DNA from: Auanema rhodensis
Taxonomy: Eukaryota > Animalia > Nematoda
Direction of reading: 5' to 3'
Length of the DNA stretch: 64,000 nt
Assembly: GCA_964057225.1 (NCBI GenBank)
Contig: OZ059900.1
Location: 10,850,001 to 10,914,000 of the forward strand
The position numbers were made by a program, and so were the translations under genes. This document shows positions 2,871 through 61,519 of this stretch, in pieces (positions within the stretch are counted from its first letter, which is position 1; every line of letters begins with the position of its first letter). The notes under the pieces were generated by a model. The model searched no databases and was not told the DNA's origin. It worked only from the letters and a program-made list of their open reading frames with translations.

Positions 2871-2910
2871 TTTGGGGGCGTGGTTAGTAAATTTTGCACG
2901 GCTCTCTACT

Positions 2911-12763: not shown

Positions 12764-13180
12764 TGTTACATACATATCTCAAAGGAAAGCAGCTGACCAT
12801 GGCAGCTGCTATTATTAAACTAATGCAGATAGTTTTTAAGCAATTCTGAGAATATTCTAGATGCACTTTTTATAAACTTTGTAACAATTTGTGTAAACTG
12901 AGTAGGAGTTGTATGGATATATAAACCTGAGTCCTCAAGACTCAGGCATCTCATTATCTCATTATCTTACTTTCTCTTTATCTTCTTTATATTCTCTTTC
13001 TTAACTCTAGCTCTAATCTTTGTATAATTATATTATAATGCGAACAATAAACCTTTATATATTTGATCTCTTGTTTCTTATTTCACCTTACATTACACAC
13101 ATATATTTAAAATCATACTCATCTTCTCATAGTCTGTTTGGATCTCTCAACTTGGAACCATTGAGGATCTAAATGGAACG
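12764..13180 (+). repeat. 3' LTR (417 bp, TGTTACAT...ATGGAACG)
   Basis: Near-identical to the inverted copy at 62819-63237 and the partial copy at 61237-61519; preceded by short G-rich tract GTTGGGGCA. Confidence 0.93.
12918..12946 (+). promoter_or_regulatory. LTR TATA box followed directly by an 8-bp-stem hairpin
   Basis: TATATAAA 12918-12925, then CCTGAGTC-ctcaa-GACTCAGG; AATAAA at 13046-13051; TATA and hairpin conserved in all three LTR copies. Confidence 0.55.
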
Positions 13181-13272
13181 CGTCAACAAATGAATAATAT
13201 AGTCTTCCTATTAAATCAGGTGGCTTGGCTTTATTTAGAAAATGATAGTTTGAATGGAGCATCCGTTGTCAT

Positions 13273-13283
13273 AAAAAACAAAA
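13273..13283 (-). terminator. Pol III oligo-T terminator (TTTTGTTTTTT), present after every tRNA copy
   Basis: Minus-strand TTAGTTTTGTTTTTT immediately 3' of the tRNA. Confidence 0.85.
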
Positions 13284-13287
13284 CTAA

Positions 13288-13369
13288 CGATCAGGATGAG
13301 ATTCGAACTGACGCGGGGAAACCCCAATGGATTAGCAGTCCATCGCCTTAACCACTCCGCCTCCTGATC
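13288..13369 (-). tRNA. tRNA-Ser(GCT), first array copy (variant: U8A, C12G and a T-stem change; possibly inactive)
   Basis: Same cloverleaf as the consensus but with A-box and T-stem substitutions (ctccgcctcc, gaactgacg on + strand). Confidence 0.75.
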
Positions 13370-13535
13370 ACAGGGTTTTTCCAAGAATACTCTTACTTAA
13401 ACAAAGAAATTATTGTGACAACAAATATCGTCAACAAACAAATAAGAAAGTCTTCCTGTTAAATCAGGTGGCTTGGCTTAATTTAGAAAATGATAGTTTG
13501 AATGGAGCATCCGTTGTCATAAAAAACAAAACTAA

Positions 13536-13617
13536 CGATCAGGATGAGATTCGAACTCACGCGGGGAAACCCCAATGGATTAGCAGTCCATCGCCTTAAC
13601 CACTCGGCCACCTGATC
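13536..13617 (-). tRNA. tRNA-Ser(GCT), consensus copy (repeats every 248 bp)
   Basis: GATCAGGTGGCCGAGTGGTTAAGGCGATGGACTGCTAATCCATTGGGGTTTCCCCGCGTGAGTTCGAATCTCATCCTGATCG: 7-bp acceptor stem, A box, GCT anticodon, long variable arm GGGG/CCCC, GTTCGAA B box, G discriminator. Confidence 0.97.
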
Positions 13618-16600
13618 ACAGGGTTTTTCCAAGAATACTCTTACTTAAACAAAGAAATTATTGTGACAACAAATATCGTCAGCAAACAAATAAGAAAGTC
13701 TTCCTATTAAATCAGGTGGCTTGGCTTTATTTAGAAAATGATAGTTTGAATGGAGCATCCGTTGTCATAAAAAACAAAACTAACGATCAGGATGAGATTC
13801 GAACTCACGCGGGGAAACCCCAATGGATTAGCAGTCCATCGCCTTAACCACTCGGCCACCTGATCACAGGGTTTTTCCAAGAATACTCTTACATAAACAA
13901 AGAAATTATTGTGAGAATAAATAACGTCAACAAATGAATAATATAGTCTTCCTATTAAATCAGGTGGCTTGGCTTTATATAGAAAATGATAGTTTGAATG
14001 GAGCATCCGTTGTCATAAAAAACAAAACTAACGATCAGGATGAGATTCGAACTCACGCGGGGAAACCCCAATGGATTAGCAGTCCATCGCCTTAACCACT
14101 CGGCCACCTGATCACAGGGTTTTTCCAAGAATACTCTTACATAAACAAAGAAATTATTGTGAGAATAAATAACGTCAACAAATGAATAATATAGTCTTCC
14201 TATTAAATCAGGTGGCTTGGCTTTATTTAGAAAATGATAGTTTGAATGGAGCATCCGTTGTCATAAAAAACAAAACTAACGATCAGGATGAGATTCGAAA
14301 TCACGCGGGGAAACCCCAATGGATTAGCAGTCCATCGCCTTAACCACTCCGCCTCCTGATCACAGGGTTTTTCCAAGAATACTCTTACTTAAACAAAGAA
14401 ATTATTGTGACAACAAATATCGTCAACAAACAAATAAGAAAGTCTTCCTGTTAAATCAGGTGGCTTGGCTTAATTTAGAAAATGATAGTTTGAATGGAGC
14501 ATCCGTTATCATAAAAAACAAAACTAACGATCAGGATGAGATTCGAACTCACGCGGGGAAACCCCAATGGATTAGCAGTCCATCGCCTTAACCACTCCGC
14601 CTCCTGATCACAGGGTTTTTCCAAGAATACTCTTACTTAAACAAAGAAATTATTGTGACAACAAATATCGTCAACAAACAAATAAGAAAGTCTTCCTGTT
14701 AAATCAGGTGGCTTGGCTTAATATAGAAAATGATAGTTTGAATGGAGCATCCGTTGTCATAAAAAACAAAACTAACGATCAGGATGAGATTCGAACTCAC
14801 GCGGGGAAACCCCAATGGATTAGCAGTCCATCGCCTTAACCACTCGGCCACCTGATCACAGGGTTTTTCCAAGAATACTCTTACTTAAACAAAGAAATTA
14901 TTGTGACAACAAATATCGTCAGCAAACAAATAAGAAAGTCTTCCTATTAAATCAGGTGGCTTGGCTTTATTTAGAAAATGATAGTTTGAATGGAGCATCC
15001 GTTGTCATAAAAAACAAAACTAACGATCAGGATGAGATTCGAACTGACGCGGGGAAACCCCAATGGATTAGCAGTCCATCGCCTTAACCACTCGGCCACC
15101 TGATCACAGGGTTTTTCCAAGAATACTCTTACTTAAACAAAGAAATTATTGTGACAACAAATATCGTCAGCAAACAAATAAGAAAGTCTTCCTATTAAAT
15201 CAGGTGGCTTGGCTTTATTTAGAAAATGATAGTTTGAATGGAGCATCCGTTGTCATAAAAAACAAAACTAACGATCAGGATGAGATTCGAACTCACGCGG
15301 GGAAACCCCAATGGATTAGCAGTCCATCGCCTTAACCACTCGGCCACCTGATCACAGGGTTTTTCCAAGAATACTCTTACTTAAACAAAGAAATTATTGT
15401 GACAACAAATATCGTCAGCAAACAAATAAGAAAGTCTTCCTATTAAATCAGATGGCTTGGCTTTATTTAGAAAATGATAGTTTGAATGGAGCATCCGTTG
15501 TCATAAAAAACAAAACTAACGATCAGGATGAGATTCGAACTCACGCGGGGAAACCCCAATGGATTAGCAGTCCATCGCCTTAACCACTCGGCCACCTGAT
15601 CACAGGGTTTTTCCAAGAATACTCTTACTTAAACAAAGAAATTATTGTGACAACAAATATCGTCAGCAAACAAATAAGAAAGTCTTCCTATTAAATCAGG
15701 TGGCTTGGCTTTATTTAGAAAATGATAGTTTGAATGGAGCATCCGTTGTCATAAAAAACAAAACTAACGATCAGGATGAGATTCGAACTGACGCGGGGAA
15801 ACCCCAATGGATTAGCAGTCCATCGCCTTAACCACTCCGCCTCCTGATCACAGGGTTTTTCCAAGAATACTCTTACTTAAACAAAGAAATTATTGTGACA
15901 ACAAATATCGTCAACAAACAAATAAGAAAGTCTTCCTGTTAAATCAGGTGGCTTGTCTTAATTTAGAAAATGATAGTTTGAATGGAGCATCCGTTGTCAT
16001 AAAAAACAAAACTAACGATCAGGATGAGATTCGAACTCACGCGGGGAAACCCCAATGGATTAGCAGTCCATCGCCTTAACCACTCGGCCACCTGATCACA
16101 GGGTTTTTCCAAGAATACTCTTACTTAAACAAAGAAATTATTGTGACAACAAATATCGTCAGCAAACAAATAAGAAAGTCTTCCTATTAAATCAGGTGGC
16201 TTGGCTTTATTTAGAAAATGATAGTTTGAATGGAGCATCCGTTGTCATAAAAAACAAAACTAACGATCAGGATGAGATTCGAACTCACGCGGGGAAACCC
16301 CAATGGATTAGCAGTCCATCGCCTTAACCACTCGGCCACCTGATCACAGGGTTTTTCCAAGAATACTCTTACTTAAACAAAGAAATTATTGTGACAACAA
16401 ATATCGTCAGCAAACAAATAAGAAAGTCTTCCTATTAAATCAGGTGGCTTGGCTTTATTTCGAAAATGATAGTTTGAATGGAGCATCCGTTGTCATAAAA
16501 AACAAAACTAACGATCAGGATGAGATTCGAACTCACGCGGGGAAACCCCAATGAATTAGCAGTCCATCGCCTTAACCACTCGGCCACCTGATCACAGGGT

Positions 16601-19600
16601 TTTTCCAAGAATACTCTTACATAAACAAAGAAATTATTGTGAGAATAAATAACGTCAACAAATGAATAATATAGTCTTCCTATTAAATCAGGTGGCTTGG
16701 CTTTATATAGAAAATGATAGTTTGAATGGAGCATCCGTTGTCATAAAAAACAAAACTAACGATCAGGATGAGATTCGAACTCACGCGGGGAAACCCCAAT
16801 GGATTAGCAGTCCATCGCCTTAACCACTCGGCCACCTGATCACAGGGTTTTTCCAAGAATACTCTTACATAAACAAAGAAATTATTGTGAGAATAAATAA
16901 CGTCAACAAATGAATAATATAGTCTTCCTATTAAATCAGGTGGCTTGGCTTTATTTAGAAAATGATAGTTTGAATGGAGCATCCGTTGTCATAAAAAACA
17001 AAACTAACGATCAGGATGAGATTCGAACTCACGCGGGGAAACCCCAATGGATTAGCAGTCCATCGCCTTAACCACTCCGCCTCCTGATCACAGGGTTTTT
17101 CCAAGAATACTCTTACTTAAACAAAGAAATTATTGTGACAACAAATATCGTCAGCAAACAAATAAGAAAGTCTTCCTATTAAATCAGGTGGCTTGGCTTT
17201 ATTTAGAAAATGATAGTTTGAATGGAGCATCCGTTGTCATAAAAAACAAAACTAACGATCAGGATGAGATTCGAACTCACGCGGGGAAACCCCAATGGAT
17301 TAGCAGTCCATCGCCTTAACCACTCGGCCACCTGATCACAGGGTTTTTCCAAGAATACTCTTACTTAAACAAAGAAATTATTGTGACAACAAATATCGTC
17401 AGCAAACAAATAAGAAAGTCTTCCTATTAAATCAGGTGGCTTGGCTTTATTTAGAAAATGATAGTTTGAATGGAGCATCCGTTGTCATAAAAAACAAAAC
17501 TAACGATCAGGATGAGATTCGAACTCACGCGGGGAAACCCCAATGGATTAGCAGTCCATCGCCTTAACCACTCGGCCACCTGATCACAGGGTTTTTCCAA
17601 GAATACTCTTACTTAAACAAAGAAATTATTGTGACAACAAATATCGTCAGCAAACAAATAAGAAAGTCTTCCTATTAAATCAGATGGCTTGGCTTTATTT
17701 AGAAAATGATAGTTTGAATGGAGCATCCGTTGTCATAAAAAACAAAACTAACGATCAGGATGAGATTCGAACTCACGCGGGGAAACCCCAATGGATTAGC
17801 AGTCCATCGCCTTAACCACTCGGCCACCTGATCACAGGGTTTTTCCAAGAATACTCTTACTTAAACAAAGAAATTATTGTGACAACAAATATCGTCAGCA
17901 AACAAATAAGAAAGTCTTCCTATTAAATCAGGTGGCTTGGCTTTATTTAGAAAATGATAGTTTGAATGGAGCATCCGTTGTCATAAAAAACAAAACTAAC
18001 GATCAGGATGAGATTCGAACTCACGCGGGGAAACCCCAATGGATTAGCAGTCCATCGCCTTAACCACTCGGCCACCTGATCACAGGGTTTTTCCAAGAAT
18101 ACTCTTACTTAAACAAAGAAATTATTGTGACAACAAATATCGTCAGCAAACAAATAAGAAAGTCTTCCTATTAAATCAGGTGGCTTGGCTTTATTTAGAA
18201 AATGATAGTTTGAATGGAGCATCCGTTGTCATAAAAAACAAAACTAACGATCAGGATGAGATTCGAACTCACGCGGGGAAACCCCAATGGATTAGCAGTC
18301 CATCGCCTTAACCACTCGGCCACCTGATCACAGGGTTTTTCCAAGAATACTCTTACTTAAACAAAGAAATTATTGTGACAACAAATATCGTCAGCAAACA
18401 AATAAGAAAGTCTTCCTATTAAATCAGGTGGCTTGGCTTTATTTCGAAAATGATAGTTTGAATGGAGCATCCGTTGTCATAAAAAACAAAACTAACGATC
18501 AGGATGAGATTCGAACTCACGCGGGGAAACCCCAATGGATTAGCAGTCCATCGCCTTAACCACTCCGCCTCCTGATCACAGGGTTTTTCCAAGAATACTC
18601 TTACTTAAACAAAGAAATTATTGTGACAACAAATATCGTCAACAAACAAATAAGAAAGTCTTCCTGTTAAATCAGGTGGCTTGGCTTAATTTAGAAAATG
18701 ATAGTTTGAATGGAGCATCCGTTGTCATAAAAAACAAAACTAACGATCAGGATGAGATTCGAACTCACGCGGGGAAACCCCAATGGATTAGCAGTCCATC
18801 GCCTTAACCACTCGGCCACCTGATCACAGGGTTTTTCCAAGAATACTCTTACTTAAACAAAGAAATTATTGTGACAACAAATATCGTCAGCAAACAAATA
18901 AGAAAGTCTTCCTATTAAATCAGGTGGCTTGGCTTTATTTAGAAAATGATAGTTTGAATGGAGCATCCGTTGTCATAAAAAACAAAACTAACGATCACGA
19001 TGAGATTCGAACTCACGCGGGGAAACCCCAATGGATTAGCAGTCCATCGCCTTAACCACTCGGCCACCTGATCACAGGGTTTTTTCAAGAATACTCTTAC
19101 TTAAACAAAGAAATTATTGTGACAACAAATATCGTCAGCAAACAAATAAGAAAGTCTTCCTATTAAATCAGGTGGCTTGGCTTTATTTAGAAAATGATAG
19201 TTTGAATGGAGCATCCGTTGTCATAAAAAACAAAACTAACGATCAGGATGAGATTCGAACTCACGCGGGGAAACCCCAATGGATTAGCAGTCCATCGCCT
19301 TAACCACTCGGCCACCTGATCACAGGGTTTTTCCAAGAATACTCTTACTTAAACAAAGAAATTATTGTGACAACAAATATCGTCAGCAAACAAATAAGAA
19401 AGTCTTCCTATTAAATCAGATGGCTTGGCTTTATTTAGAAAATGATAGTTTGAATGGAGCATCCGTTGTCATAAAAAACAAAACTAACGATCAGGATGAG
19501 ATTCGAACTCACGCGGGGAAACCCCAATGGATTAGCAGTCCATCGCCTTAACCACTCGGCCACCTGATCACAGGGTTTTTCCAAGAATACTCTTACTTAA

Positions 19601-22600
19601 ACAAAGAAATTATTGTGACAACAAATATCGTCAGCAAACAAATAAGAAAGTCTTCCTATTAAATCAGGTGGCTTGGCTTTATTTAGAAAATGATAGTTTG
19701 AATGGAGCATCCGTTGTCATAAAAAACAAAACTAACGATCAGGATGAGATTCGAACTCACGCGGGGAAACCCCAATGGATTAGCAGTCCATCGCCTTAAC
19801 CACTCGGCCACCTGATCACAGGGTTTTTCCAAGAATACTCTTACTTAAACAAAGAAATTATTGTGACAACAAATATCGTCAGCAAACAAATAAGAAAGTC
19901 TTCCTATTAAATCAGGTGGCTTGGCTTTATTTCGAAAATGATAGTTTGAATGGAGCATCCGTTGTCATAAAAAACAAAACTAACGATCAGGATGAGATTC
20001 GAACTCACGCGGGGAAACCCCAATGAATTAGCAGTCCATCGCCTTAACCACTCGGCCACCTGATCACAGGGTTTTTCCAAGAATACTCTTACATAAACAA
20101 AGAAATTATTGTGAGAATAAATAACGTCAACAAATGAATAATATAGTCTTCCTATTAAATCAGGTGGCTTGGCTTTATATAGAAAATGATAGTTTGAATG
20201 GAGCATCCGTTGTCATAAAAAACAAAACTAACGATCAGGATGAGATTCGAACTCACGCGGGGAAACCCCAATGGATTAGCAGTCCATCGCCTTAACCACT
20301 CGGCCACCTGATCACAGGGTTTTTCCAAGAATACTCTTACATAAACAAAGAAATTATTGTGAGAATAAATAACGTCAACAAATGAATAATATAGTCTTCC
20401 TATTAAATCAGGTGGCTTGGCTTTATTTAGAAAATGATAGTTTGAATGGAGCATCCGTTGTCATAAAAAACAAAACTAACGATCAGGATGAGATTCGAAC
20501 TCACGCGGGGAAACCCCAATGGATTAGCAGTCCATCGCCTTAACCACTCCGCCTCCTGATCACAGGGTTTTTCCAAGAATACTCTTACTTAAACAAAGAA
20601 ATTATTGTGACAACAAATATCGTCAGCAAACAAATAAGAAAGTCTTCCTATTAAATCAGGTGGCTTGGCTTTATTTAGAAAATGATAGTTTGAATGGAGC
20701 ATCCGTTGTCATAAAAAACAAAACTAACGATCAGGATGAGATTCGAACTCACGCGGGGAAACCCCAATGGATTAGCAGTCCATCGCCTTAACCACTCGGC
20801 CACCTGATCACAGGGTTTTTCCAAGAATACTCTTACTTAAACAAAGAAATTATTGTGACAACAAATATCGTCAGCAAACAAATAAGAAAGTCTTCCTATT
20901 AAATCAGGTGGCTTGGCTTTATTTAGAAAATGATAGTTTGAATGGAGCATCCGTTGTCATAAAAAACAAAACTAACGATCAGGATGAGATTCGAACTCAC
21001 GCGGGGAAACCCCAATGGATTAGCAGTCCATCGCCTTAACCACTCGGCCACCTGATCACAGGGTTTTTCCAAGAATACTCTTACTTAAACAAAGAAATTA
21101 TTGTGACAACAAATATCGTCAGCAAACAAATAAGAAAGTCTTCCTATTAAATCAGATGGCTTGGCTTTATTTAGAAAATGATAGTTTGAATGGAGCATCC
21201 GTTGTCATAAAAAACAAAACTAACGATCAGGATGAGATTCGAACTCACGCGGGGAAACCCCAATGGATTAGCAGTCCATCGCCTTAACCACTCGGCCACC
21301 TGATCACAGGGTTTTTCCAAGAATACTCTTACTTAAACAAAGAAATTATTGTGACAACAAATATCGTCAGCAAACAAATAAGAAAGTCTTCCTATTAAAT
21401 CAGGTGGCTTGGCTTTATTTAGAAAATGATAGTTTGAATGGAGCATCCGTTGTCATAAAAAACAAAACTAACGATCAGGATGAGATTCGAACTCACGCGG
21501 GGAAACCCCAATGGATTAGCAGTCCATCGCCTTAACCACTCGGCCACCTGATCACAGGGTTTTTCCAAGAATACTCTTACTTAAACAAAGAAATTATTGT
21601 GACAACAAATATCGTCAGCAAACAAATAAGAAAGTCTTCCTATTAAATCAGGTGGCTTGGCTTTATTTAGAAAATGATAGTTTGAATGGAGCATCCGTTG
21701 TCATAAAAAACAAAACTAACGATCAGGATGAGATTCGAACTCACGCGGGGAAACCCCAATGGATTAGCAGTCCATCGCCTTAACCACTCGGCCACCTGAT
21801 CACAGGGTTTTTCCAAGAATACTCTTACTTAAACAAAGAAATTATTGTGACAACAAATATCGTCAGCAAACAAATAAGAAAGTCTTCCTATTAAATCAGG
21901 TGGCTTGGCTTTATTTCGAAAATGATAGTTTGAATGGAGCATCCGTTGTCATAAAAAACAAAACTAACGATCAGGATGAGATTCGAACTCACGCGGGGAA
22001 ACCCCAATGGATTAGCAGTCCATCGCCTTAACCACTCCGCCTCCTGATCACAGGGTTTTTCCAAGAATACTCTTACTTAAACAAAGAAATTATTGTGACA
22101 ACAAATATCGTCAACAAACAAATAAGAAAGTCTTCCTGTTAAATCAGGTGGCTTGGCTTAATTTAGAAAATGATAGTTTGAATGGAGCATCCGTTGTCAT
22201 AAAAAACAAAACTAACGATCAGGATGAGATTCGAACTCACGCGGGGAAACCCCAATGGATTAGCAGTCCATCGCCTTAACCACTCGGCCACCTGATCACA
22301 GGGTTTTTCCAAGAATACTCTTACTTAAACAAAGAAATTATTGTGACAACAAATATCGTCAGCAAACAAATAAGAAAGTCTTCCTATTAAATCAGGTGGC
22401 TTGGCTTTATTTAGAAAATGATAGTTTGAATGGAGCATCCGTTGTCATAAAAAACAAAACTAACGATCACGATGAGATTCGAACTCACGCGGGGAAACCC
22501 CAATGGATTAGCAGTCCATCGCCTTAACCACTCGGCCACCTGATCACAGGGTTTTTTCAAGAATACTCTTACTTAAACAAAGAAATTATTGTGACAACAA

Positions 22601-25600
22601 ATATCGTCAGCAAACAAATAAGAAAGTCTTCCTATTAAATCAGGTGGCTTGGCTTTATTTAGAAAATGATAGTTTGAATGGAGCATCCGTTGTCATAAAA
22701 AACAAAACTAACGATCAGGATGAGATTCGAACTCACGCGGGGAAACCCCAATGGATTAGCAGTCCATCGCCTTAACCACTCGGCCACCTGATCACAGGGT
22801 TTTTCCAAGAATACTCTTACTTAAACAAAGAAATTATTGTGACAACAAATATCGTCAGCAAACAAATAAGAAAGTCTTCCTATTAAATCAGATGGCTTGG
22901 CTTTATTTAGAAAATGATAGTTTGAATGGAGCATCCGTTGTCATAAAAAACAAAACTAACGATCAGGATGAGATTCGAACTCACGCGGGGAAACCCCAAT
23001 GGATTAGCAGTCCATCGCCTTAACCACTCGGCCACCTGATCACAGGGTTTTTTCAAGAATACTCTTACTTAAACAAAGAAATTATTGTGACAACAAATAT
23101 CGTCAGCAAACAAATAAGAAAGTCTTCCTATTAAATCAGGTGGCTTGGCTTTATTTAGAAAATGATAGTTTGAATGGAGCATCCGTTGTCATAAAAAACA
23201 AAACTAACGATCAGGATGAGATTCGAACTCACGCGGGGAAACCCCAATGGATTAGCAGTCCATCGCCTTAACCACTCGGCCACCTGATCACAGGGTTTTT
23301 CCAAGAATACTCTTACTTAAACAAAGAAATTATTGTGACAACAAATATCGTCAGCAAACAAATAAGAAAGTCTTCCTATTAAATCAGATGGCTTGGCTTT
23401 ATTTAGAAAATGATAGTTTGAATGGAGCATCCGTTGTCATAAAAAACAAAACTAACGATCAGGATGAGATTCGAACTCACGCGGGGAAACCCCAATGAAT
23501 TAGCAGTCCATCGCCTTAACCACTCGGCCACCTGATCACAGGGTTTTTCCAAGAATACTCTTACATAAACAAAGAAATTATTGTGAGAATAAATAACGTC
23601 AACAAATGAATAATATAGTCTTCCTATTAAATCAGGTGGCTTGGCTTTATATAGAAAATGATAGTTTGAATGGAGCATCCGTTGTCATAAAAAACAAAAC
23701 TAACGATCAGGATGAGATTCGAACTCACGCGGGGAAACCCCAATGGATTAGCAGTCCATCGCCTTAACCACTCGGCCACCTGATCACAGGGTTTTTCCAA
23801 GAATACTCTTACTTAAACAAAGAAATTATTGTGACAACAAATATCGTCAGCAAACAAATAAGAAAGTCTTCCTATTAAATCAGATGGCTTGGCTTTATTT
23901 AGAAAATGATAGTTTGAATGGAGCATCCGTTGTCATAAAAAACAAAACTAACGATCAGGATGAGATTCGAACTCACGCGGGGAAACCCCAATGGATTAGC
24001 AGTCCATCGCCTTAACCACTCGGCCACCTGATCACAGGGTTTTTCCAAGAATACTCTTACTTAAACAAAGAAATTATTGTGACAACAAATATCGTCAGCA
24101 AACAAATAAGAAAGTCTTCCTATTAAATCAGATGGCTTGGCTTTATTTAAAAAATGATAGTTTGAATGGAGCATCCGTTGTCATAAAAAACAAAACTAAC
24201 GATCAGGATGAGATTCGAACTCACGCGGGGAAACCCCAATGGATTAGCAGTCCATCGCCTTAACCACTCGGCCACCTGATCACAGTGTTTTTCCAAGAAT
24301 ACTCTTACTTAAACAAAGAAATTATTGTGACAACAAATATCGTCAGCAAACAAATAAGAAAGTCTTCCTATTAAATCAGATGGCTTGGCTTTATTTAGAA
24401 AATGATAGTTTGAATGGAGCATCCGTTGTCATAAAAAACAAAACTAACGATCAGGATGAGATTCGAACTCACGCGGGGAAACCCCAATGGATTAGCAGTC
24501 CATCGCCTTAACCACTCGGCCACCTGATCACAGGGTTTTTCCAAGAATACTCTTACATAAACAAAGAAATTATTGTGAGAATAAATAACGTCAACAAATG
24601 AATAATATAATCTTCCTATTAAATCAGGTGGATTGGCTTTATTTAGAAAATGATAGTTTGAATGGAGCATCCGTTGTCATAAAAAACAAAACTAACGATC
24701 AGGATGAGATTCGAACTCACGCGGGGAAACCCCAATGGATTAGCAGTCCATCGCCTTAACCACTCGGCCACCTGATCACAGGGTTTTTCCAAGAATACTC
24801 TTACTTAAACAAAGAAATTATTGTGACAACAAATATCGTCAGCAAACAAATAAGAAAGTCTTCCTATTAAATCAGGTGGCTTGGCTTTATTTAGAAAATG
24901 ATAGTTTGAATGGAGCATCCGTTGTCATAAAAAACAAAACTAACGATCAGGATGAGATTCGAACTCACGCGGGGAAACCCCAATGGATTAGCAGTCCATC
25001 GCCTTAACCACTCGGCCACCTGATCACAGGGTTTTTTCAAGAATACTCTTACTTAAACAAAGAAATTATTGTGACAACAAATATCGTCAGCAAACAAATA
25101 AGAAAGTCTTCCTATTAAATCAGGTGGCTTGGCTTTATTTAGAAAATGATAGTTTGAATGGAGCATCCGTTGTCATAAAAAACAAAACTAACGATCAGGA
25201 TGAGATTCGAACTCACGCGGGGAAACCCCAATGGATTAGCAGTCCATCGCCTTAACCACTCGGCCACCTGATCACAGGGTTTTTCCAAGAATACTCTTAC
25301 TTAAACAAAGAAATTATTGTGACAACAAATATCGTCAGCAAACAAATAAGAAAGTCTTCCTATTAAATCAGATGGCTTGGCTTTATTTAGAAAATGATAG
25401 TTTGAATGGAGCATCCGTTGTCATAAAAAACAAAACTAACGATCAGGATGAGATTCGAACTCACGCGGGGAAACCCCAATGAATTAGCAGTCCATCGCCT
25501 TAACCACTCGGCCACCTGATCACAGGGTTTTTCCAAGAATACTCTTACATAAACAAAGAAATTATTGTGAGAATAAATAACGTCAACAAATGAATAATAT

Positions 25601-28600
25601 AGTCTTCCTATTAAATCAGGTGGCTTGGCTTTATATAGAAAATGATAGTTTGAATGGAGCATCCGTTGTCATAAAAAACAAAACTAACGATCAGGATGAG
25701 ATTCGAACTCACGCGGGGAAACCCCAATGGATTAGCAGTCCATCGCCTTAACCACTCGGCCACCTGATCACAGGGTTTTTCCAAGAATACTCTTACTTAA
25801 ACAAAGAAATTATTGTGAGAATAAATAACGTCAACAAATGAATAATATAGTCTTCCTATTAAATCAGGTGGCTTGGCTTTATTCAGAAAATGATAGTTTG
25901 AATGGAGCATCCGTTGTCATAAAAAACAAAACTAACGATCAGGATGAGATTCGAACTCACGCGGGGAAACCCCAATGGATTAGCAGTCCATCGCCTTAAC
26001 CACTCGGCCACCTGATCACAGGGTTTTTCCAAGAATACTCTTACTTAAACAAAGAAATTATTGTGAGAATAAATAACGTCAACAAATGAATAATATAGTC
26101 TTCCTATTAAATCAGGTGGCTTGGCTTTATTTAGAAAATGATAGTTTGAATAGAGCATCCGTTGTCATAAAAAACAAAACTAACGATCAGGATGAGATTC
26201 GAACTCACGCGGGGAAACCCCAATGGATTAGCAGTCCATCGCCTTAACCACTCGGCCACCTGATCACAGGGTTTTTCCAAGAATACTCTTACATAAACAA
26301 AGAAATTATTGTGAGAATAAATAACGTCAAAAAATGAATAATATAGTCTTCCTATTAAATCAGGTGGCTTGGCTTTATTTAGAAAATGATAGTTTGAATG
26401 GAGCATCCGTTGTCATAAAAAACAAAACTAACGATCAGGATGAGATTCGAACTCACGCGGGGAAACCCCAATGGATTAGCAGTCCATCGCCTTAACCACT
26501 CGGCCACCTGATCACAGGGTTTTTCCAAGAATACTCTTACTTAAACAAAGAAATTATTGTGACAACAAATATCGTCAGCAAACAAATAAGAAAGTCTTCC
26601 TATTAAATCAGATGGCTTGGCTTTATTTAGAAAATGATAGTTTGAATGGAGCATCCGTTGTCATAAAAAACAAAACTAACGATCAGGATGAGATTCGAAC
26701 TCACGCGGGGAAACCCCAATGGATTAGCAGTCCATCGCCTTAACCACTCGGCCACCTGATCACAGGGTTTTTCCAAGAATACTCTTACTTAAACAAAGAA
26801 ATTATTGTGACAACAAATATCGTCAGCAAACAAATAAGAAAGTCTTCCTATTAAATCAGATGGCTTGGCTTTATTTAGAAAATGATAGTTTGAATGGAGC
26901 ATCCGTTGTCATAAAAAACAAAACTAACGATCAGGATGATATTCGAACTCACGCGGGGAAACCCCAATGGATTAGCAGTCCATCGCCTTAACCACTCGGC
27001 CACCTGATCACAGGGTTTTTCCAAGAATACTCTTACATAAACAAAGAAATTATTGTGAGAATAAATAACGTCAACAAATGAATAATATAATCTTCCTATT
27101 AAATCAGGTGGATTGGCTTTATTTAGAGAATGATAGTTTGAATGGAGCATCCGTTGTCATAAAAAACAAAACTAACGATCAGGATGAGATTCGAACTCAC
27201 GCGGGGAAACCCCAATGGATTAGCAGTCCATCGCCTTAACCACTCGGCCACCTGATCACAGGGTTTTTCCAAGAATACTCTTACTTAAACAAAGAAATTA
27301 TTGTGACAACAAATATCGTCAGCAAACAAATAAGAAAGTCTTCCTATTAAATCAGGTGGCTTGGCTTTATTGAGAAAATGATAGTTTGAATGGAGCATCC
27401 GTTGTCATAAAAAACAAAACTAACGATCAGGATGAGATTCGAACTCACGCGGGGAAACCCCAATGGATTAGCAGTCCATCGCCTTAACCACTCGGCCACC
27501 TGATCACAGGGTTTTTCCAAGAATACTCTTACTTAAACAAAGAAATTATTGTGACAACAAATATCGTCAGCAAACAAATAAGAAAGTCTTCCTATTAAAT
27601 CAGGTGGCTTGGCTTTATTTAGAAAATGATAGTTTGAATGGAGCATCCGTTGTCATAAAAAACAAAACTAACGATCAGGATGAGATTCGAACTCACGCGG
27701 GGAAACCCCAATGGATTAGCAGTCCATCGCCTTAACCACTCGGCCACCTGATCACAGGGTTTTTCCAAGAATACTCTTAATTAAACAAAGAAATTATTGT
27801 GACAACAAATAACGTCAACAAATGAATAATATAATCTTCCTATTAAATCAGGTGGATTGGCTTTATTTAGAAAATGATAGTTTGAATGGAGCATCCGTTG
27901 TCATAAAAAACAAAACTAACGATCAGGATGAGATTCGAACTCACGCGGGGAAACCCCAATGGATTAGCAGTCCATCGCCTTAACCACTCGGCCACCTGAT
28001 CACAGGGTTTTTCCAAGAATACTCTTACATAAACAAAGAAATTATTGTGAGAATAAATAACGTCAACAAATGAATAATATAGTCTTCCTATTAAATCAGG
28101 TGGCTTGGCTTTATTTAGAAAATGATAGTTTGAATGGAGCATCCGTTGTCATAAAAAACAAAACTAACGATCAGGATGAGATTCGAACTCACGCGGGGAA
28201 ACCCCAATGGATTAGCAGTCCATCGCCTTAACCACTCGGCCACCTGATCACAGGGTTTTTCCAAGAATACTCTTACTTAAACAAAGAAATTATTGTGAGA
28301 ATAAATAACGTCAACAAATGAATAATATAGTCTTCCTATTAAATCAGGTGGCTTGGCTTTATTTAGAAAATGATAGTTTGAATGGAGCATCCGTTGTCAT
28401 AAAAAACAAAACTAACGATCAGGATGAGATTCGAACTCACGCGTGGAAACCCCAATGGATTAGCAGTCCATCGCCTTAACCACTCGGCCACCTGATCACA
28501 GGGTTTTTCCAAGAATACTCTTACTTAAACAAAGAAATTATTGTGACAACAAATATCGTCAACAAACAAATAAGAAAGTCTTCCTGTTAAATCAGGTGGC

Positions 28601-31600
28601 TTGGCTTCATTTAGAAAATGATAGTTTGAATGGAGCATCCGTTGTCATAAAAAACAAAACTAACGATCAGGATGAGATTCGAACTCACGCGGGGAAACCC
28701 CAATGGATTAGCAGTCCATCGCCTTAACCACTCGGCCACCTGATCACAGGGTTTTTCCAAGAATACTCTTACTTAAACAAAGAAATTATTGTGACAACAA
28801 ATATCGTCAGCAAACAACTTCATTTAGAAAATGATAGTTTGAATGGAGCATCCGTTGTCATAAAAAACAAAACTAACGATCAGGATGAGATTCGAACTCA
28901 CGTGTGGAAACCCCAATGGATTAGCAGTCCATCGCCTTAACCACTCGGCCACCTGATCACAGGGTTTTTCCAAGAATACTCTTACTTAAACAAAGAAATT
29001 ATTGTGACAACAAATATCGTCAACAAACAAATAAGAAAGTCTTCCTGTTAAATCAGGTGGCTTGGCTTCATTTAGAAAATGATAGTTTGAATGGAGCATC
29101 CGTTGTCATAAAAAACAAAACTAACGATCAGGATGAGATTCGAACTCACGCGTGGAAACCCCAATGGATTAGCAGTCCATCGCCTTAACCACTCGGCCAC
29201 CTGATCACAGGGTTTTTCCAAGAATACTCTTACTTAAACAAAGAAATTATTGTGACAACAAATATCGTCAACAAACAAATAAGAAAGTCTTCCTGTTAAA
29301 TCAGGTGGCTTGGCTTCATTTAGAAAATGATAGTTTGAATGGAGCATCCGTTGTCATAAAAAACAAAACTAACGATCAGGATGAGATTCGAACTCACGCG
29401 GGGAAACCCCAATGGATTAGCAGTCCATCGCCTTAACCACTCGGCCACCTGATCACAGGGTTTTTCCAAGAATACTCTTACTTAAACAAAGAAATTATTG
29501 TGACAACAAATATCGTCAGCAAACAACTTCATTTAGAAAATGATAGTTTGAATGGAGCATCCGTTGTCATAAAAAACAAAACTAACGATCAGGATGAGAT
29601 TCGAACTCACGCGTGGAAACCCCAATGGATTAGCAGTCCATCGCCTTAACCACTCGGCCACCTGATCACAGGGTTTTTCCAAGAATACTCTTACTTAAAC
29701 AAAGAAATTATTGTGACAACAAATATCGTCAACAAACAAATAAGAAAGTCTTCCTGTTAAATCAGGTGGCTTGGCTTCATTTAGAAAATGATAGTTTGAA
29801 TGGAGCATCCGTTGTCATAAAAAACAAAACTAACGATCAGGATGAGATTCGAACTCACGCGGGGAAACCCCAATGGATTAGCAGTCCATCGCCTTAACCA
29901 CTCGGCCACCTGATCACAGGGTTTTTCCAAGAATACTCTTACTTAAACAAAGAAATTATTGTGACAACAAATATCGTCAGCAAACAAATAAGAAAGTCTT
30001 CCTATTAAATCAGGTGGCTTGGCTTTATTTAGAAAATGATAGTTTGAATGGAGCATCCGTTGTCATAAAAAACAAAACTAACGATCAGGATGAGATTCGA
30101 ACTCACGCGGGGAAACCCCAATGGATTAGCAGTCCATCGCCTTAACCACTCCGCCTCCTGATCACATTGTTTTTCCAAGAATACTCTTACTTAAACAAAG
30201 AAATTATTGTGACAACAAATATCGTCAACAAACAAATAAGAAAGTCTTCCTGTTAAATCAGGTGGCTTGGCTTAATTTAGAAAATGATAGTTTGAATGGA
30301 GCATCCGTTGTCATAAAAAACAAAACTAACGATCAGGATGAGATTCGAACTCACGCGGGGAAACCCCAATGGATTAGCAGTCCATCGCCTTAACCACTCG
30401 GCCACCTGATCACAGGGTTTTTTCCAAGAATACTCTTAATTAAACAAAGAAATTATTGTGAGAATAAATAACGTCAACAAATGAATAATATAGTCTTCCT
30501 ATTAAATCAGGTGGCTTGGCTTTATTTAGAAAATGATAGTTTGAATGGAGCATCCGTTGTCATAAAAAACAAAACTAACGATCAGGATGAGATTCGAACT
30601 CACGCGGGGAAACCCCAATGGATTAGCAGTCCATCGCCTTAACCACTCGGCCACCTGATCACAGGGTTTTTCCAAGAATACTCTTACATAAACAAAGAAA
30701 TTATTGTGAGAATAAAGAACGTCAACAAATGAATAATATAGTCTTCCTATTAAATCAGGTGGCTTGGCTTTATTTAGAAAATGATAGTTTGAATGGAGCA
30801 TCCGTTGTCATAAAAAACAAAACTAACGATCAGGATGAGATTCGAACTCACGCGGGGAAACCCCAATGGATTAGCAGTCCATCGCCTTAACCACTCGCCC
30901 ACCTGATCACAGGGTTTTTCCAAGAATACTCTTACTTAAACAAAGAAATTATTGTGAGAATAAATAACGTCAACAAATGCATAATATAGTCTTCCTATTA
31001 AATCAGGTGGCTTGGCTTTATTTAGAAAATGATAGTTTGAATGGAGCATCCGTTGTCATAAAAAACAAAACTAACGATCAGGATGAGATTCGAACTCACG
31101 CGGGGAAACCCCAATGGATTAGCAGTCCATCGCCTTAACCACTCGGCCACCTGATCACAGGGTTTTTCCAAGAATACTCTTACTTAAACAAAGAAATTAT
31201 TGTGACAACAAATATCGTCAACAAACAAATAAGAAAGTCTTCCTGTTAAATCAGGTGGCTTGGCTTCATTTAGAAAATGATAGTTTGAATGGAGCATCCG
31301 TTGTCATAAAAAACAAAACTAACGATCAGGATGAGATTCGAACTCACGCGGGGAAACCCCAATGGATTAGCAGTCCATCGCCTTAACCACTCGGCCACCT
31401 GATCACAGGGTTTTTCCAAGAATACTCTTACATAAACAAAGAAATTATTGTGAGAATAAATAACGTCAACAAATGAATAATATAGTCTTCCTATTAAATC
31501 AGGTGGCTTGGCTTTATTTAGAAAATGATAGTTTGAATGGAGCATCCGTTGTCATAAGAAACAAAACTAACGATCAGGATGAGATTCGAACTCACGCGGG

Positions 31601-55600: not shown

Positions 55601-58600
55601 TTGTCATAAAAAACAAAACTAACGATCAGGATGAGATTCGAACTCACGCGGGGAAACCCCAATGGATTAGCAGTCCATCGCCTTAACCACTCGGCCACCT
55701 GATCACAGGGTTTTTCCAAGAATACTCTTACTTAAACAAAGAAATTATTGTGAGAATAAATAACGTCAACAAATGAATAATATAGTCTTCCTATTAAATC
55801 AGGTGGCTTGGCTTTATTTAGAAAATGATAGTTTGAATGGAGCATCCGTTGTCATAAAAAACAAAACTAACGATCAGGATGAGATTGGAACTCACGCGGG
55901 GAAACCCCAATGGATTAGCAGTCCATCGCCTTAACCACTCGGCCACCTGATCACAGGGTTTTTCCAAGAATACTCTTACTTGAACAAAGAAATTATTGTG
56001 ACAACAAATATCGTCAACAAACAAATAAGAAAGTCTTCCTGTTAAATCAGGTGGCTTGGCTTCATTTAGAAAATGATAGTTTGAATGGAGCATCCGTTGT
56101 CATAAAAAACAAAACTAACGATCAGGATGAGATTCGAACTCACGCGGGGAAACCCCAATGGATTAGCAGTCCATCGCCTTAACCACTCGGCCACCTGATG
56201 ACAGGGTTTTTCCAAGAATACTCTTACATAAACAAAGAAATTATTGTGAGAATAAATAACGTCAACAAATGAATAATATAGTCTTCCTATTAAATCAGGT
56301 GGCTTGGCTTTATTTAGAAAATGATAGTTTGAATGGAGCATCCGTTGTCATAAAAAACAAAACTAACGATCAGGATGAGATTCGAACTCACGCGGGGAAA
56401 CCCCAATGGATTAGCAGTCCATCGCCTTAACCACTCGGCCACCTGATCACAGGGTTTTTCCAAGAATACTCTTACTTAAACAAAGAAATTATTGTGAGAA
56501 TAAATAACGTCAACAAATGAATAATATAGTCTTCCTATTAAATCAGGTGGCTTGGCTTTATTTAGAAAATGATAGTTTGAATGGAGCATCCGTTGTCATA
56601 AAAAACAAAACTAACGATCAGGATGAGATTGGAACTCACGCGGGGAAACCCCAATGGATTAGCAGTCCATCGCCTTAACCACTCGGCCACCTGATCACAG
56701 GGTTTTTCCAAGAATACTCTTACTTGAACAAAGAAATTATTGTGACAACAAATATCGTCAACAAACAAATAAGAAAGTCTTCCTGTTAAATCAGGTGGCT
56801 TGGCTTCATTTAGAAAATGATAGTTTGAATGGAGCATCCGTTGTCATAAAAAACAAAACTAACGATCAGGATGAGATTCGAACTCACGCGGGGAAACCCC
56901 AATGGATTAGCAGTCCATCGCCTTAACCACTCGGCCACCTGATCACAGGGTTTTTCCAAGAATACTCTTACATAAACAAAGAAATTATTGTGAGAATAAA
57001 TAACGTCAACAAATGAATAATATAGTCTTCCTATTAAATCAGGTGGCTTGGCTTTATTTAGAAAATGATAGTTTGAATGGAGCATCCGTTGTCATAAAAA
57101 ACAAAACTAACGATCAGGATGAGATTCGAACTCACGCGGGGAAACCCCAATGGATTAGCAGTCCATCGCCTTAACCACTCGGCCACCTGATCACAGGGTT
57201 TTTCCAAGAATACTCTTACTTAAACAAAGAAATTATTGTGAGAATAAATAACGTCAACAAATGAATAATATAGTCTTCCTATTAAATCAGGTGGCTTGGC
57301 TTTATTTAGAAAATGATAGTTTGAATGGAGCATCCGTTGTCATAAAAAACAAAACTAACGATCAGGATGAGATTCGAACTCACGCGGGGAAACCCCAATG
57401 GATTAGCAGTCCATCGCCTTAACCACTCGGCCACCTGATCACAGGGTTTTTCCAAGAATACTCTTACATAAACAAAGAAATTATTGTGAGAATAAATAAC
57501 GTCAACAAATGAATAATATAGTCTTCCTATTAAATCAGGTGGCTTGGCTTTATTTAGAAAATGATAGTTTGAATGGAGCATCCGTTGTCATAAAAAACAA
57601 AACTAACGATCAGGATGAGATTCGAACTCACGCGGGGAAACCCCAATGGATTAGCAGTCCATCGCCTTAACCACTCGGCCACCTGATCACAGGGTTTTTC
57701 CAAGAATACTCTTACATAAACAAAGAAATTATTGTGAGAATAAATAACGTCAACAAATGAATAATATAGTCTTCCTATTAAATCAGGTGGCTTGGCTTTA
57801 TTTAGAAAATGATAGTTTGAATGGAGCATCCGTTGTCATAAAAAACAAAACTAACGATCAGGATGAGATTCGAACTCACGCGGGGAAACCCCAATGGATT
57901 AGCAGTCCATCGCCTTAACCACTCGGCCACCTGATCACAGGGTTTTTCCAAGAATACTCTTACATAAACAAAGAAATTATTGTGAGAATAAATAACGTCA
58001 ACAAATGAATAATATAGTCTTCCTATTAAATCAGGTGGCTTGGCTTTATTTAGAAAATGATAGTTTGAATGGAGCATCCGTTGTCATAAAAAACAAAACT
58101 AACGATCAGGATGAGATTCGAACTCACGCGGGGAAACCCCAATGGATTAGCAGTCCATCGCCTTAACCACTCGGCCACCTGATCACAGGGTTTTTCCAAG
58201 AATACTCTTACATAAACAAAGAAATTATTGTGAGAATAAATAACGTCAACAAATGAATAATATAGTCTTCCTATTAAATCAGGTGGCTTGGCTTTATTTA
58301 GAAAATGATAGTTTGAATGGAGCATCCGTTGTCATAAAAAACAAAACTAACGATCAGGATGAGATTCGAACTCACGCGGGGAAACCCCAATGGATTAGCA
58401 GTCCATCGCCTTAACCACTCGGCCACCTGATCACAGGGTTTTTCCAAGAATACTCTTACTTAAACAAAGAAATTATTGTGAGAATAAATAACGTCAACAA
58501 ATGAATAATATAGTCTTCCTATTAAATCAGGTGGCTTGGCTTTATTTAGAAAATGATAGTTTGAATGGAGCATCCGTTGTCATAAAAAACAAAACTAACG

Positions 58601-61078
58601 ATCAGGATGAGATTGGAACTCACGCGGGGAAACCCCAATGGATTAGCAGTCCATCGCCTTAACCACTCGGCCACCTGATCACAGGGTTTTTCCAAGAATA
58701 CTCTTACTTGAACAAAGAAATTATTGTGACAACAAATATCGTCAACAAACAAATAAGAAAGTCTTCCTGTTAAATCAGGTGGCTTGGCTTCATTTAGAAA
58801 ATGATAGTTTGAATGGAGCATCCGTTGTCATAAAAAACAAAACTAACGATCAGGATGAGATTCGAACTCACGCGGGGAAACCCCAATGGATTAGCAGTCC
58901 ATCGCCTTAACCACTCGGCCACCTGATCACAGGGTTTTTCCAAGAATACTCTTACATAAACAAAGAAATTATTGTGAGAATAAATAACGTCAACAAATGA
59001 ATAATATAGTCTTCCTATTAAATCAGGTGGCTTGGCTTTATTTAGAAAATGATAGTTTGAATGGAGCATCCGTTGTCATAAAAAACAAAACTAACGATCA
59101 GGATGAGATTCGAACTCACGCGGGGAAACCCCAATGGATTAGCAGTCCATCGCCTTAACCACTCGGCCACCTGATCACAGGGTTTTTCCAAGAATACTCT
59201 TACATAAACAAAGAAATTATTGTGAGAATAAATAACGTCAACAAATGAATAATATAGTCTTCCTATTAAATCAGGTGGCTTGGCTTTATTTAGAAAATGA
59301 TAGTTTGAATGGAGCATCCGTTGTCATAAAAAACAAAACTAACGATCAGGATGAGATTCGAACTCACGCGGGGAAACCCCAATGGATTAGCAGTCCATCG
59401 CCTTAACCACTCGGCCACCTGATCACAGGGTTTTTCCAAGAATACTCTTACATAAACAAAGAAATTATTGTGAGAATAAATAACGTCAACAAATGAATAA
59501 TATAGTCTTCCTATTAAATCAGGTGGCTTGGCTTTATTTAGAAAATGATAGTTTGAATGGAGCATCCGTTGTCATAAAAAACAAAACTAACGATCAGGAT
59601 GAGATTCGAACTCACGCGGGGAAACCCCAATGGATTAGCAGTCCATCGCCTTAACCACTCGGCCACCTGATCACAGGGTTTTTCCAAGAATACTCTTACT
59701 TAAACAAAGAAATTATTGTGAGAATAAATAACGTCAACAAATGAATAATATAGTCTTCCTATTAAATCAGGTGGCTTGGCTTTATTTAGAAAATGATAGT
59801 TTGAATGGAGCATCCGTTGTCATAAAAAACAAAACTAACGATCAGGATGAGATTCGAACTCACGCGGGGAAACCCCAATGGATTAGCAGTCCATCGCCTT
59901 AACCACTCGGCCACCTGATCACAGGGTTTTTCCAAGAATACTCTTACTTGAACAAAGAAATTATTGTGACAACAAATATCGTCAACAAACAAATAAGAAA
60001 GTCTTCCTGTTAAATCAGGTGGCTTGGCTTCATTTAGAAAATGATAGTTTGAATGGAGCATCCGTTGTCATAAAAAACAAAACTAACGATCAGGATGAGA
60101 TTCGAACTCACGCGGGGAAACCCCAATGGATTAGCAGTCCATCGCCTTAACCACTCGGCCACCTGATCACAGGGTTTTTCCAAGAATACTCTTACATAAA
60201 CAAAGAAATTATTGTGAGAATAAATAACGTCAACAAATGAATAATATAGTCTTCCTATTAAATCAGGTGGCTTGGCTTTATTTAGAAAATGATAGTTTGA
60301 ATGGAGCATCCGTTGTCATAAAAAACAAAACTAACGATCAGGATGAGATTCGAACTCACGCGGGGAAACCCCAATGGATTAGCAGTCCATCGCCTTAACC
60401 ACTCGGCCACCTGATCACAGGGTTTTTCCAAGAATACTCTTACTTAAACAAAGAAATTATTGTGAGAATAAATAACGTCAACAAATGAATAATATAGTCT
60501 TCCTATTAAATCAGGTGGCTTGGCTTTATTTAGAAAATGATAGTTTGAATGGAGCATCCGTTGTCATAAAAAACAAAACTAACGATCAGGATGAGATTCG
60601 AACTCACGCGGGGAAACCCCAATGGATTAGCAGTCCATCGCCTTAACCACTCGGCCACCTGATCACAGGGTTTTTCCAAGAATACTCTTACTTGAACAAA
60701 GAAATTATTGTGACAACAAATATCGTCAACAAACAAATAAGAAAGTCTTCCTGTTAAATCAGGTGGCTTGGCTTCATTTAGAAAATGATAGTTTGAATGG
60801 AGCATCCGTTGTCATAAAAAACAAAACTAACGATCAGGATGAGATTCGAACTCACGCGGGGAAACCCCAATGGATTAGCAGTCCATCGCCTTAACCACTC
60901 GGCCACCTGATCACAGGGTTTTTCCAAGAATACTCTTACATAAACAAAGAAATTATTGTGAGAATAAATAACGTCAACAAATGAATAATATAGTCTTCCT
61001 ATTAAATCAGGTGGCTTGGCTTTATTTAGAAAATGATAGTTTGAATGGAGCATCCGTTGTCATAAAAAACAAAACTAA

Positions 61079-61160
61079 CGATCAGGATGAGATTCGAACT
61101 CACGCGGGGAAACCCCAATGGATTAGCAGTCCATCGCCTTAACCACTCGGCCACCTGATC
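61079..61160 (-). tRNA. tRNA-Ser(GCT), last array copy
   Basis: Identical to the consensus copy. Confidence 0.97.
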
Positions 61161-61236
61161 ACAGGGTTTTTCCAAGAATACTCTTACTTAAACAAAGAAA
61201 TTATTGTGAGAATAAATAACGTCAACAAATGAATAA

Positions 61237-61519
61237 TGTTACATACATATCTCAAAGGAAAGCAGCTGACCATGGCAGCTGCTATTATTAAACTAATGCA
61301 GATAGTTTTTAAGCAATTCTGAGAATATTCTAGATGCACTTTTTATAAGCTTTGTAATATTTTGTGTAAACTGAGTAGGAGTTGTATGGATATATAAACC
61401 TGAGTCCTCAAGACTCAGGCATCTCATCATCTCATTATCTCATTATCTTACTTTCTCTTTATCTTCTTTATATTCGCTCTCTTAACTCTAGCTTTAGTCT
61501 TTGTATAATTATATTATAA
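61237..61519 (+). mobile_element. 3'-truncated LTR of a second copy of the same element
   Basis: Begins TGTTACATACATATCTC and matches 12764-~13038, then breaks into pol sequence. Confidence 0.92.

Follow-up and report, generated by a model that had tools for sequence, protein, structure and literature searches.

Part of the 64,000-nucleotide stretch of DNA analysed here (the window) consists of copies of one tRNA gene, which raises the question of whether so many genes serve a demand for this tRNA or have been amplified in the manner of a satellite. The initial annotation had described the block as a single-isoacceptor array, amplified about 194-fold, at 13181..61236.

Extent and unit structure of the array

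A mismatch scan identified 194 tRNA-Ser(GCT) genes, arranged head-to-tail on the minus strand over approximately 48 kb (13181-61236), which confirms the annotated copy count. ARAGORN called 193 of them between 13287 and 61161, all as minus-strand tRNA-Ser(gct); the copy without an ARAGORN call, at 14280-14361, matched the Rfam tRNA model with 44.8 bits against a gathering score of 29. TRF placed the array at 13181-61237 with a period of 248. As position 61237 is already the first base of an LTR, the array ends at 61236, as annotated. A chance origin of the array is excluded.

Each of the 194 units of 248 bp is composed of an 82-nt tRNA-Ser(GCT) gene and a 166-bp spacer, which contains the oligo-T terminator about 5-15 nt past the gene and then the AT-rich upstream flank of the next gene. 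The distance between copies was 248 bp in 186 of the 193 intervals, 247 bp in four, 249 bp in one and 213 bp in two, and the 48-kb array contains five indels, each of 1 bp. The 213-bp intervals belong to two 213+248 bp pairs (28557..29726, minus strand), recognized by TRF with a period of 461, which have a 35-bp spacer deletion in common. Copies 14-26 are identical letter-for-letter to copies 28-40 (16405..23100, minus strand; lag of 14 units, about 3.5 kb). This recent higher-order duplication of 13 units is the only long exact block in the array. No short-period repeats were detected in the spacer by TRF over the whole array.

Integrity of the tRNA genes

The majority gene matches Rfam family RF00005 with 64 bits and all 24 stem pairs that were checked are standard. 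Its cloverleaf has the 7-bp acceptor stem and long variable arm of a eukaryotic type II tRNA-Ser. The GCT anticodon and the discriminator G are kept in 194/194 copies. The A box is unaltered in 178/194 copies (changed in 16) and the B box in 185/194 (changed in 9), while a T6 run is found within 20 nt downstream of 191 genes and a run of at least T4 downstream of all 194. There are 140 identical genes and 12 more with benign changes, so that 152 of the 194 copies have an intact cloverleaf; a broken stem pair or an altered invariant base was seen in 42.

These results bear out the earlier statement that most copies retain their A and B boxes, anticodon and oligo-T run, and with boxes and terminators intact most copies are predicted to be transcribable. 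The label of a tDNA-derived satellite, also given in the initial annotation, holds for the satellite-like turnover described below but overstates the decay, as most units are still intact genes. A decayed tRNA-derived satellite or SINE was rejected on the same count of intact copies, the tRNA part not being degenerate. Weak Rfam matches to Plastid-psbl-rps4 and sR43 were also rejected, lying far under their gathering scores.

A Ty3/gypsy element flanks the array

The window holds repeats only, with no host gene, and the array has 13 kb of non-telomeric DNA on its left side and 2.8 kb on its right. These flanks correspond to a Ty3/gypsy element of GAG-ENV-POL order, with LTRs at both ends of the array. 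On the left, a single 2960-codon ORF (2842..11724, plus strand) encodes gag, an env-like stretch, protease, RT, RNase H and integrase; the env-like stretch is of gB type, with a Pfam match below the cut-off. The GAG-ENV-POL order is reported from Nematoda, Bryozoa and Platyhelminthes (PMC13524379). No 5′ LTR of the left-flank element was found within the window. Its 417-bp 3′ LTR (12764..13180, plus strand) is preceded by a purine-rich tract and directly followed by the first spacer. On the right, a truncated LTR (61237..61519, plus strand), 2.9% diverged from the left LTR, continues into a pol fragment (61520..62525, plus strand) that is 98% identical to 7806-8811. It is followed on the minus strand (62526..63237) by an inverted 5′ LTR (62819-63237) with its primer-binding site and leader. 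Array spacer of about 20 bp forms the 5′ flank of this inverted LTR, and an orphan spacer without a tRNA gene lies at 63260..63372 (plus strand). The orphan diverges by 11.5-22% (mean 19%) from 191 array spacers and likely represents either the ancestral upstream flank or an old unit from the end of the array. The best 10 RT-integrase matches were to Caenorhabditis or Diploscapter (46-53% identical), and judging from these matches and the gene order of the flanking element the host of the array is likely a rhabditid nematode.

A search of public sequencing runs listed 15, all of them contig sets and none recorded as containing RNA, which says nothing about expression. The comparison with such runs covered the left LTR together with the adjoining 105 bp of spacer. 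The spacer was present in contigs of 4/4 related runs compared (3 studies, 4 organism labels), and one of them, X6, contains the joint between the inverted LTR and the orphan spacer. Relative to low-depth LTR-variant contigs, the summed depth of spacer contigs was about 3-fold in X9, 1.5-18-fold in X3, 25-75-fold in X6 and 30-110-fold in X8, all below 194, with the proviso that contig depth is not copy number; the count of 194 is the figure of this assembly. The spacer pattern gave no matches in metagenome contigs.

Variation and turnover of the units

Among 193 gene-plus-spacer units 91 are distinct. Units sharing rare variants lie close to each other (summed span 767 vs. 1666 ± 144; none of 2000 shuffles was as low), and differences between units grow with distance, being 5.95 for lag 1 and 8.21 for lag 100, values inflated by some misphased units. 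With its distinct units, local variant clusters, diverged orphan at the edge and spacer present in public runs, the array looks biological.

The density of rare variant sites does not differ between the gene (22/82) and the spacer (37/166; p=0.43), nor does it within the base classes (p=0.83 and 1.0). Of the derived gene alleles 17/26 are damaging vs. 17.7 expected under random placement (P=0.46), a test of low power at n=26. Because new mutations in the gene match those in the spacer in both density and damage, no purifying selection on single copies was detectable by either measure. Common, and hence older, variant sites are instead confined to the spacer (11/11, none in the gene). This skew has p=0.018, obtained from the unit set that includes some misphased units, and the 11 sites, which form linked blocks, are not independent of each other. 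Together with the constancy of anticodon and discriminator, the spacer-only common variants hint at long-term protection of the gene. Selection, if it acts at all, probably acts on the whole array only. Satellite-like turnover fits the array better than a need for dosage, and the initial description of a satellite-like amplification far above normal dosage is supported by the satellite-like variation and by gene mutations that pass unfiltered.

Proposed origin and alternative explanations

We consider it probable that these 194 near-identical tRNA-Ser(GCT) genes, likely of a rhabditid nematode, were multiplied and homogenised by unequal crossing-over, like a satellite, and that most copies are predicted to be transcribable and yet individually dispensable. 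The array would have started in a repeat-rich region from one gene that was tandemly duplicated along with its flanks, about 130 bp upstream and 36 bp downstream. Repeated unequal exchange would then have enlarged the array while continually erasing old variation, which would explain why the core array, with a spacer diversity of about 3.7%, is far more uniform than the orphan (19%). Later, members of the Ty3/gypsy family would have inserted into spacers and trimmed the array to its current ends. As turnover of this kind is seen together with no visible selection on single copies, the number of tRNA genes in such genomes should be equated with tRNA demand only with caution.

Other readings of the array were weighed against this one. 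The window offers no positive sign of any of the roles suggested in the initial annotation, be it boundary, condensin, centromere-like, tRNA-fragment source or germline-restricted block. That the array belongs to germline-restricted DNA, lost from the soma by programmed DNA elimination, where repeats gather under weak selection, is unlikely as judged from present evidence, although compatible with an origin by unequal exchange. Tandem tRNA arrays are listed among the germline-restricted repeats of Auanema rhodense (10.64898/2026.08.27.747507), the window contains repeats only, and the spacer contig depth in some runs is far under 194-fold, a weak indication given the nature of contig depth. 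Against it, Nippostrongylus has similar arrays, and passages on them in PMC5765664 make no mention of elimination; the window also has no telomere-repeat dimer, which is uninformative for a germline assembly. It is rather unlikely that the copies are retained for dosage, to supply tRNA-Ser(GCT) for AGC/AGU-rich messages such as those of oocytes or embryos. The intact majority, the anticodon kept throughout and the restriction of common variants to the spacer would agree with such a role, but damaging new alleles are not depleted and one isoacceptor alone is amplified in the array. In the retroelement ORF, AGC/AGT codons account for 56 of the 195 serines, showing no excess, a figure for the retroelement and not for host codon usage.

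A structural function, as TFIIIC/condensin platform or chromatin boundary comparable to the Entamoeba arrays and the human 1q23 tRNA repeat, seems very unlikely. One B box per 248 bp, 194 in all, would form a dense TFIIIC-binding platform, and a boundary role of the human tRNA repeat is given in the title of a work cited in PMC11067881. Yet retroelements lie on both sides, no border between gene-rich DNA and heterochromatin is visible within the window, the array lacks the chromosome-end location described for Entamoeba arrays, and changes in A and B boxes are tolerated. Inflation of a much shorter array by the assembler, to which the exact 13-unit repeat and, weakly, the run contig depths below 194-fold could point, is highly improbable: the 91 distinct units, the position-ordered variant families and the five 1-bp indels in 48 kb speak against it, and where copying of exact blocks would be expected, the lone long exact block explains at most 14 units. 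The position of the array between LTRs of the same orientation, 2.9% apart, could mean that an LTR element carries it as cargo (LTR-array-LTR) or that it provides a primer tRNA for the neighbouring retrotransposon. Both ideas are close to untenable, being largely refuted by the anatomy of the flanks. The left LTR belongs to the upstream element as its 3′ LTR and leads into spacer with no primer-binding site, a truncated LTR that continues into pol stands on the right, and the flanks have no target-site duplication. The primer site of the element (after 62819; also in X9) mismatches the 3′ end of the array tRNA. We take this site to resemble that for a tRNA-Gln primer.

Comparison with known tRNA gene arrays

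Arrays of this type are already described in nematodes (Nippostrongylus, Auanema), Hydractinia and Entamoeba; what is added here is a fully resolved array including both ends. The 'VeCTR' arrays of Nippostrongylus brasiliensis are reported to comprise a ~200-bp tRNA-Trp unit present about 150 times and a tRNA-Ser gene present 90 times (PMC5765664). Like the array studied here, itself likely from a nematode, they consist of tens to hundreds of head-to-tail units with one tRNA gene per unit and a lineage-specific spacer, which differs in length (166 bp here vs. 80 bp) as does the copy number (194 here vs. 90). Passages on those arrays describe neither variation between copies nor the anatomy of the flanks, and name no anticodon for the Ser array. 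For Auanema rhodense, 19,554 annotated tRNA loci and germline-restricted tandem tRNA arrays with units of 167-504 nt are reported (10.64898/2026.08.27.747507). The tandem blocks and satellite-type unit size of this eliminated DNA resemble our array, whereas its scale is far larger and germline restriction was demonstrated there. In Hydractinia and Nematostella, near-identical tRNA genes are described as standing at even spacing in arrays of tens to hundreds (PMC11067881), but these represent all 20 isotypes and their spacers measure hundreds to thousands of nt, compared with one isotype and 166 bp here.

Because closer nematode precedents exist, the array is less surprising than the comparison with Entamoeba, made in the initial annotation, would suggest. 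This likeness extends to the uniform tandem tRNA-gene units reported there (PMC2652664; 10.64898/2026.07.06.736064) and is otherwise loose, since the array is interstitial, retroelement-flanked, with one gene per unit and an STR-free spacer. A telomeric array of Entamoeba type was rejected on the non-telomeric flanks, the absence of telomere-repeat dimers in the window, the single gene per unit and the lack of STRs. An element of the TRIMp3/Helenus type, as characterized in PMC10886601, was rejected as well: the LTRs contain no tRNA gene, no primer-binding site follows the left LTR and there is no target-site duplication.

LTR-spacer junctions upstream of tRNA genes

The three LTR-spacer junctions have one orientation in common, and each is situated upstream of a tRNA start. 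The left LTR (12764..13180) is 59 bp from where the tRNA start would lie, the truncated LTR (61237) starts 76 bp ahead of the last tRNA gene, and the spacer phase in the flank of the inverted LTR corresponds to 70 bp upstream of a tRNA start. The probability of such clustering by chance is about 0.015-0.03 before orientation is considered, a post hoc value for junctions that may not be independent. The junctions hint at a preference of this env-bearing Ty3/gypsy family for sites 60-80 bp upstream of tRNA genes, although such targeting is rather unlikely; the array would then be a landing field whose ends are defined and eroded by repeated insertions. In 80 loci (545 kb) of RT-integrase relatives no tRNA gene was found nearby; these relatives are distant (at most 41% identity) and the loci short. 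A search of titles and abstract openings, in literature that takes in few subscription journals, returned no tRNA-targeting LTR element of nematodes, and the hosts of tRNA-gene-targeting Ty3/gypsy elements in a review table are only fungi and dictyostelids (PMC5911963).

Should the junctions be the outcome of genuine targeting, the range of Pol III-directed integration would come to include an envelope-bearing retrotransposon of an animal. Known tRNA-targeting Ty3/gypsy elements, as given in PMC5911963 and PMC5633606, are Ty3, Tj1, Tca8 and DGLT-A, with distances of 1-33 bp for the Ty3 type. The element described here shares with them Ty3/gypsy LTRs placed at short and similar distances upstream of tRNA genes, and differs in being an env-bearing animal element, with three junctions at one locus, at 59-76 bp.

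Structure and copy number of the array

The tRNA-Ser(GCT) array occupies positions 13181–61236 on the minus strand. Of these minus-strand tRNA-Ser(gct) genes ARAGORN called 193, and the one copy it missed is a B-box variant with an Rfam tRNA score of 44.8 bits. A mismatch scan gave 194 copies; 186 of the 193 intervals between them measure 248 bp. Each unit comprises an 82-nt gene and a 166-bp spacer, which carries a T-run terminator shortly 3′ of the gene. The anticodon and discriminator G are kept in all copies, the A box in 178, the B box in 185 and the T6 run in 191; 140 of the 194 genes are identical. As judged by stem-pair checks, 152 copies are structurally intact and 42 carry a broken pair or an altered invariant base. 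The initial annotation had described a large array of mostly intact genes of a single isoacceptor, and these counts bear it out.

Sequence variation and probable turnover

Ninety-one distinct gene-plus-spacer units were found among 193. Units sharing rare variants cluster by position (summed span 767 vs. 1666 ± 144, with 0 of 2000 shuffles that low), unit-to-unit differences increase with distance along the array, and only five 1-bp indels occur across its 48 kb. One 13-unit block is repeated exactly, which may stem from recent duplication or from a local slip in assembly.

Gene and spacer differ in nucleotide diversity (0.0099 and 0.0366, respectively), a gap due to 11 common spacer sites arranged in linked blocks. 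Rare variant sites are equally dense in gene and spacer (22/82 vs. 37/166, p = 0.43), also within base classes, and damaging derived alleles of the gene numbered 17 of 26 against 17.7 expected under random placement (P = 0.46). Thus, purging of new mutations in single copies is not visible in this low-power test. All common variants lie outside the gene and no anticodon is changed, a hint that the whole array is protected over the long run. At the array edge, a gene-less orphan spacer (63260–63372) shows a mean divergence of 19%, and the core is uniform; a diverged edge with a uniform core is the usual sign of concerted evolution.

Retroelements flanking the array

Left of the array lies a Ty3/gypsy element (2842–12572) with a single open GAG-ENV-POL frame. 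The 2960-codon frame contains gag, protease, RT, RNase H and integrase, with a weak gB-type env match; a long Thr-rich, mucin-like insert is seen in its env region (about 5900–6350). A second frame of 239 codons (11853–12572), ahead of the 3′ LTR, gave no Pfam match at E 0.1, and the 5′ LTR was not found within the window. All ten best relatives of the 2960-codon frame belong to Caenorhabditis or Diploscapter (46–53% identity), and elements in GAG-ENV-POL order that carry a gB-type env are reported from Nematoda, Bryozoa and Platyhelminthes (PMC13524379). From these we infer a probable nematode host, judged from a mobile element rather than a host gene. Two stretches, ahead of the gag frame (2678–2880) and the 3′ LTR (12628–12763), are built alike, with a poly-A tract, a 39-bp segment (92% alike), paired CAGCTG and a purine-rich end.

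The 417-bp 3′ LTR (12764–13180) directly adjoins the first spacer. The right end comprises, in order, a truncated LTR (61237–61519) fused to a pol fragment, an inverted 5′ LTR (62819–63237) with a primer site, and the 113-bp orphan spacer. At 63237–63285, about 20 bp of inverted spacer beside the inverted LTR fold back directly into the forward orphan spacer. Two short palindromes within the 3′ LTR (12788–12810 and 12926–12946), one consisting of paired CAGCTG E-box-like motifs, likewise occur in the other LTR copies.

All three LTR-spacer junctions lie upstream of the tRNA start, at 59, 70 (derived from unit phase) and 76 bp, with the same LTR orientation throughout. The chance that three random points share one 17-bp stretch of a 248-bp unit is about 0.015, or about 0.03 for spacer only, as calculated post hoc on a sample biased to surviving junctions. 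The LTR copies are 2.9–5.8% apart, and this sequence divergence suggests separate insertions; the two right-hand junctions could also represent one event, via an inverted rearrangement. Known tRNA-targeting Ty3/gypsy elements insert 1–33 bp upstream, in contrast to the distances here, and the hosts tabulated are fungi and dictyostelids (PMC5911963 Table 1; PMC5633606). A literature search by title and abstract start, covering few subscription journals, found no nematode tRNA-targeting LTR element. Among 80 loci with relatives of the RT-integrase (545 kb in total), no tRNA gene was present, but with identities of 41% or less and such short loci this says little about targeting. That the flanking element targets tRNA genes on insertion seems doubtful to us.

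Origin of the array

Large tandem tRNA arrays are already known, and the tRNA-Ser(GCT) array is a further case. In Nippostrongylus brasiliensis, a ~200-bp tRNA-Trp unit is repeated about 150 times and a tRNA-Ser gene with an 80-bp spacer occurs 90 times (PMC5765664), and in Hydractinia every isotype is arrayed in tens to hundreds of copies (PMC11067881). For Auanema rhodense, 19,554 tRNA loci are reported, and eliminated DNA contains tandem tRNA blocks (10.64898/2026.08.27.747507). Entamoeba arrays, as described, have multi-gene units and lie at chromosome ends (PMC2652664; 10.64898/2026.07.06.736064), features that the present array does not share.

We consider it probable that a gene with short flanks was duplicated inside a repeat-rich region, and that the array would have grown by unequal exchange and then turned over in satellite fashion. 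The majority of copies are predicted to be transcribable, with none individually needed. Of the satellite interpretation in the initial annotation, the satellite-like turnover is retained; a decayed tRNA satellite is ruled out by the 152 intact copies, and the likeness to Entamoeba arrays is loose.

A germline-restricted, eliminated block, for which the eliminated tRNA blocks of Auanema offer a precedent, is compatible with growth by unequal exchange but rather unlikely. Weighing against the assembled copy count, summed spacer depth stood about 3-fold above that of low-depth LTR-variant contigs in run X9 and no more than about 110-fold above it in X8, never 194-fold; since contig depths are no copy number, this points only weakly to a varying copy number, loss from somatic cells or technical bias. 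The spacer:LTR depth ratio varies more than ten-fold among runs (about 0.25 in X3, about 3–4 in X6, X8 and X9), perhaps through differences in array copy number or through biased amplification. Inflation of the copy count by assembly, to which the exact 13-unit block might be related, is very improbable. The array spacer is present in contigs of all four public runs compared (three studies, four organism labels; 4 of 15 listed), and contigs of X6 hold the joint of inverted LTR and orphan spacer; the low-depth, identical X9 spacer could be carry-over from another sample of the same study.

Maintenance for tRNA dosage, a putative role with which the unchanged anticodon is consistent and the unpurged single-copy mutations less so, is unlikely. 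B boxes at 248-bp spacing would suit a putative structural TFIIIC platform or boundary, which we find quite improbable. That the array is LTR cargo, as the LTRs on both sides might suggest, or a primer source is barely conceivable, and a Helenus-type element (PMC10886601) was rejected as its identity.

Other sequence in the window

Positions 3–539 encode the C-terminal portion of a chromodomain-bearing, integrase-like protein, which presumably resembles a Maverick/Polinton integrase. AT-rich DNA at 2233–2395 holds a 56-bp tandem repeat of 2.9 copies with 95% matches.
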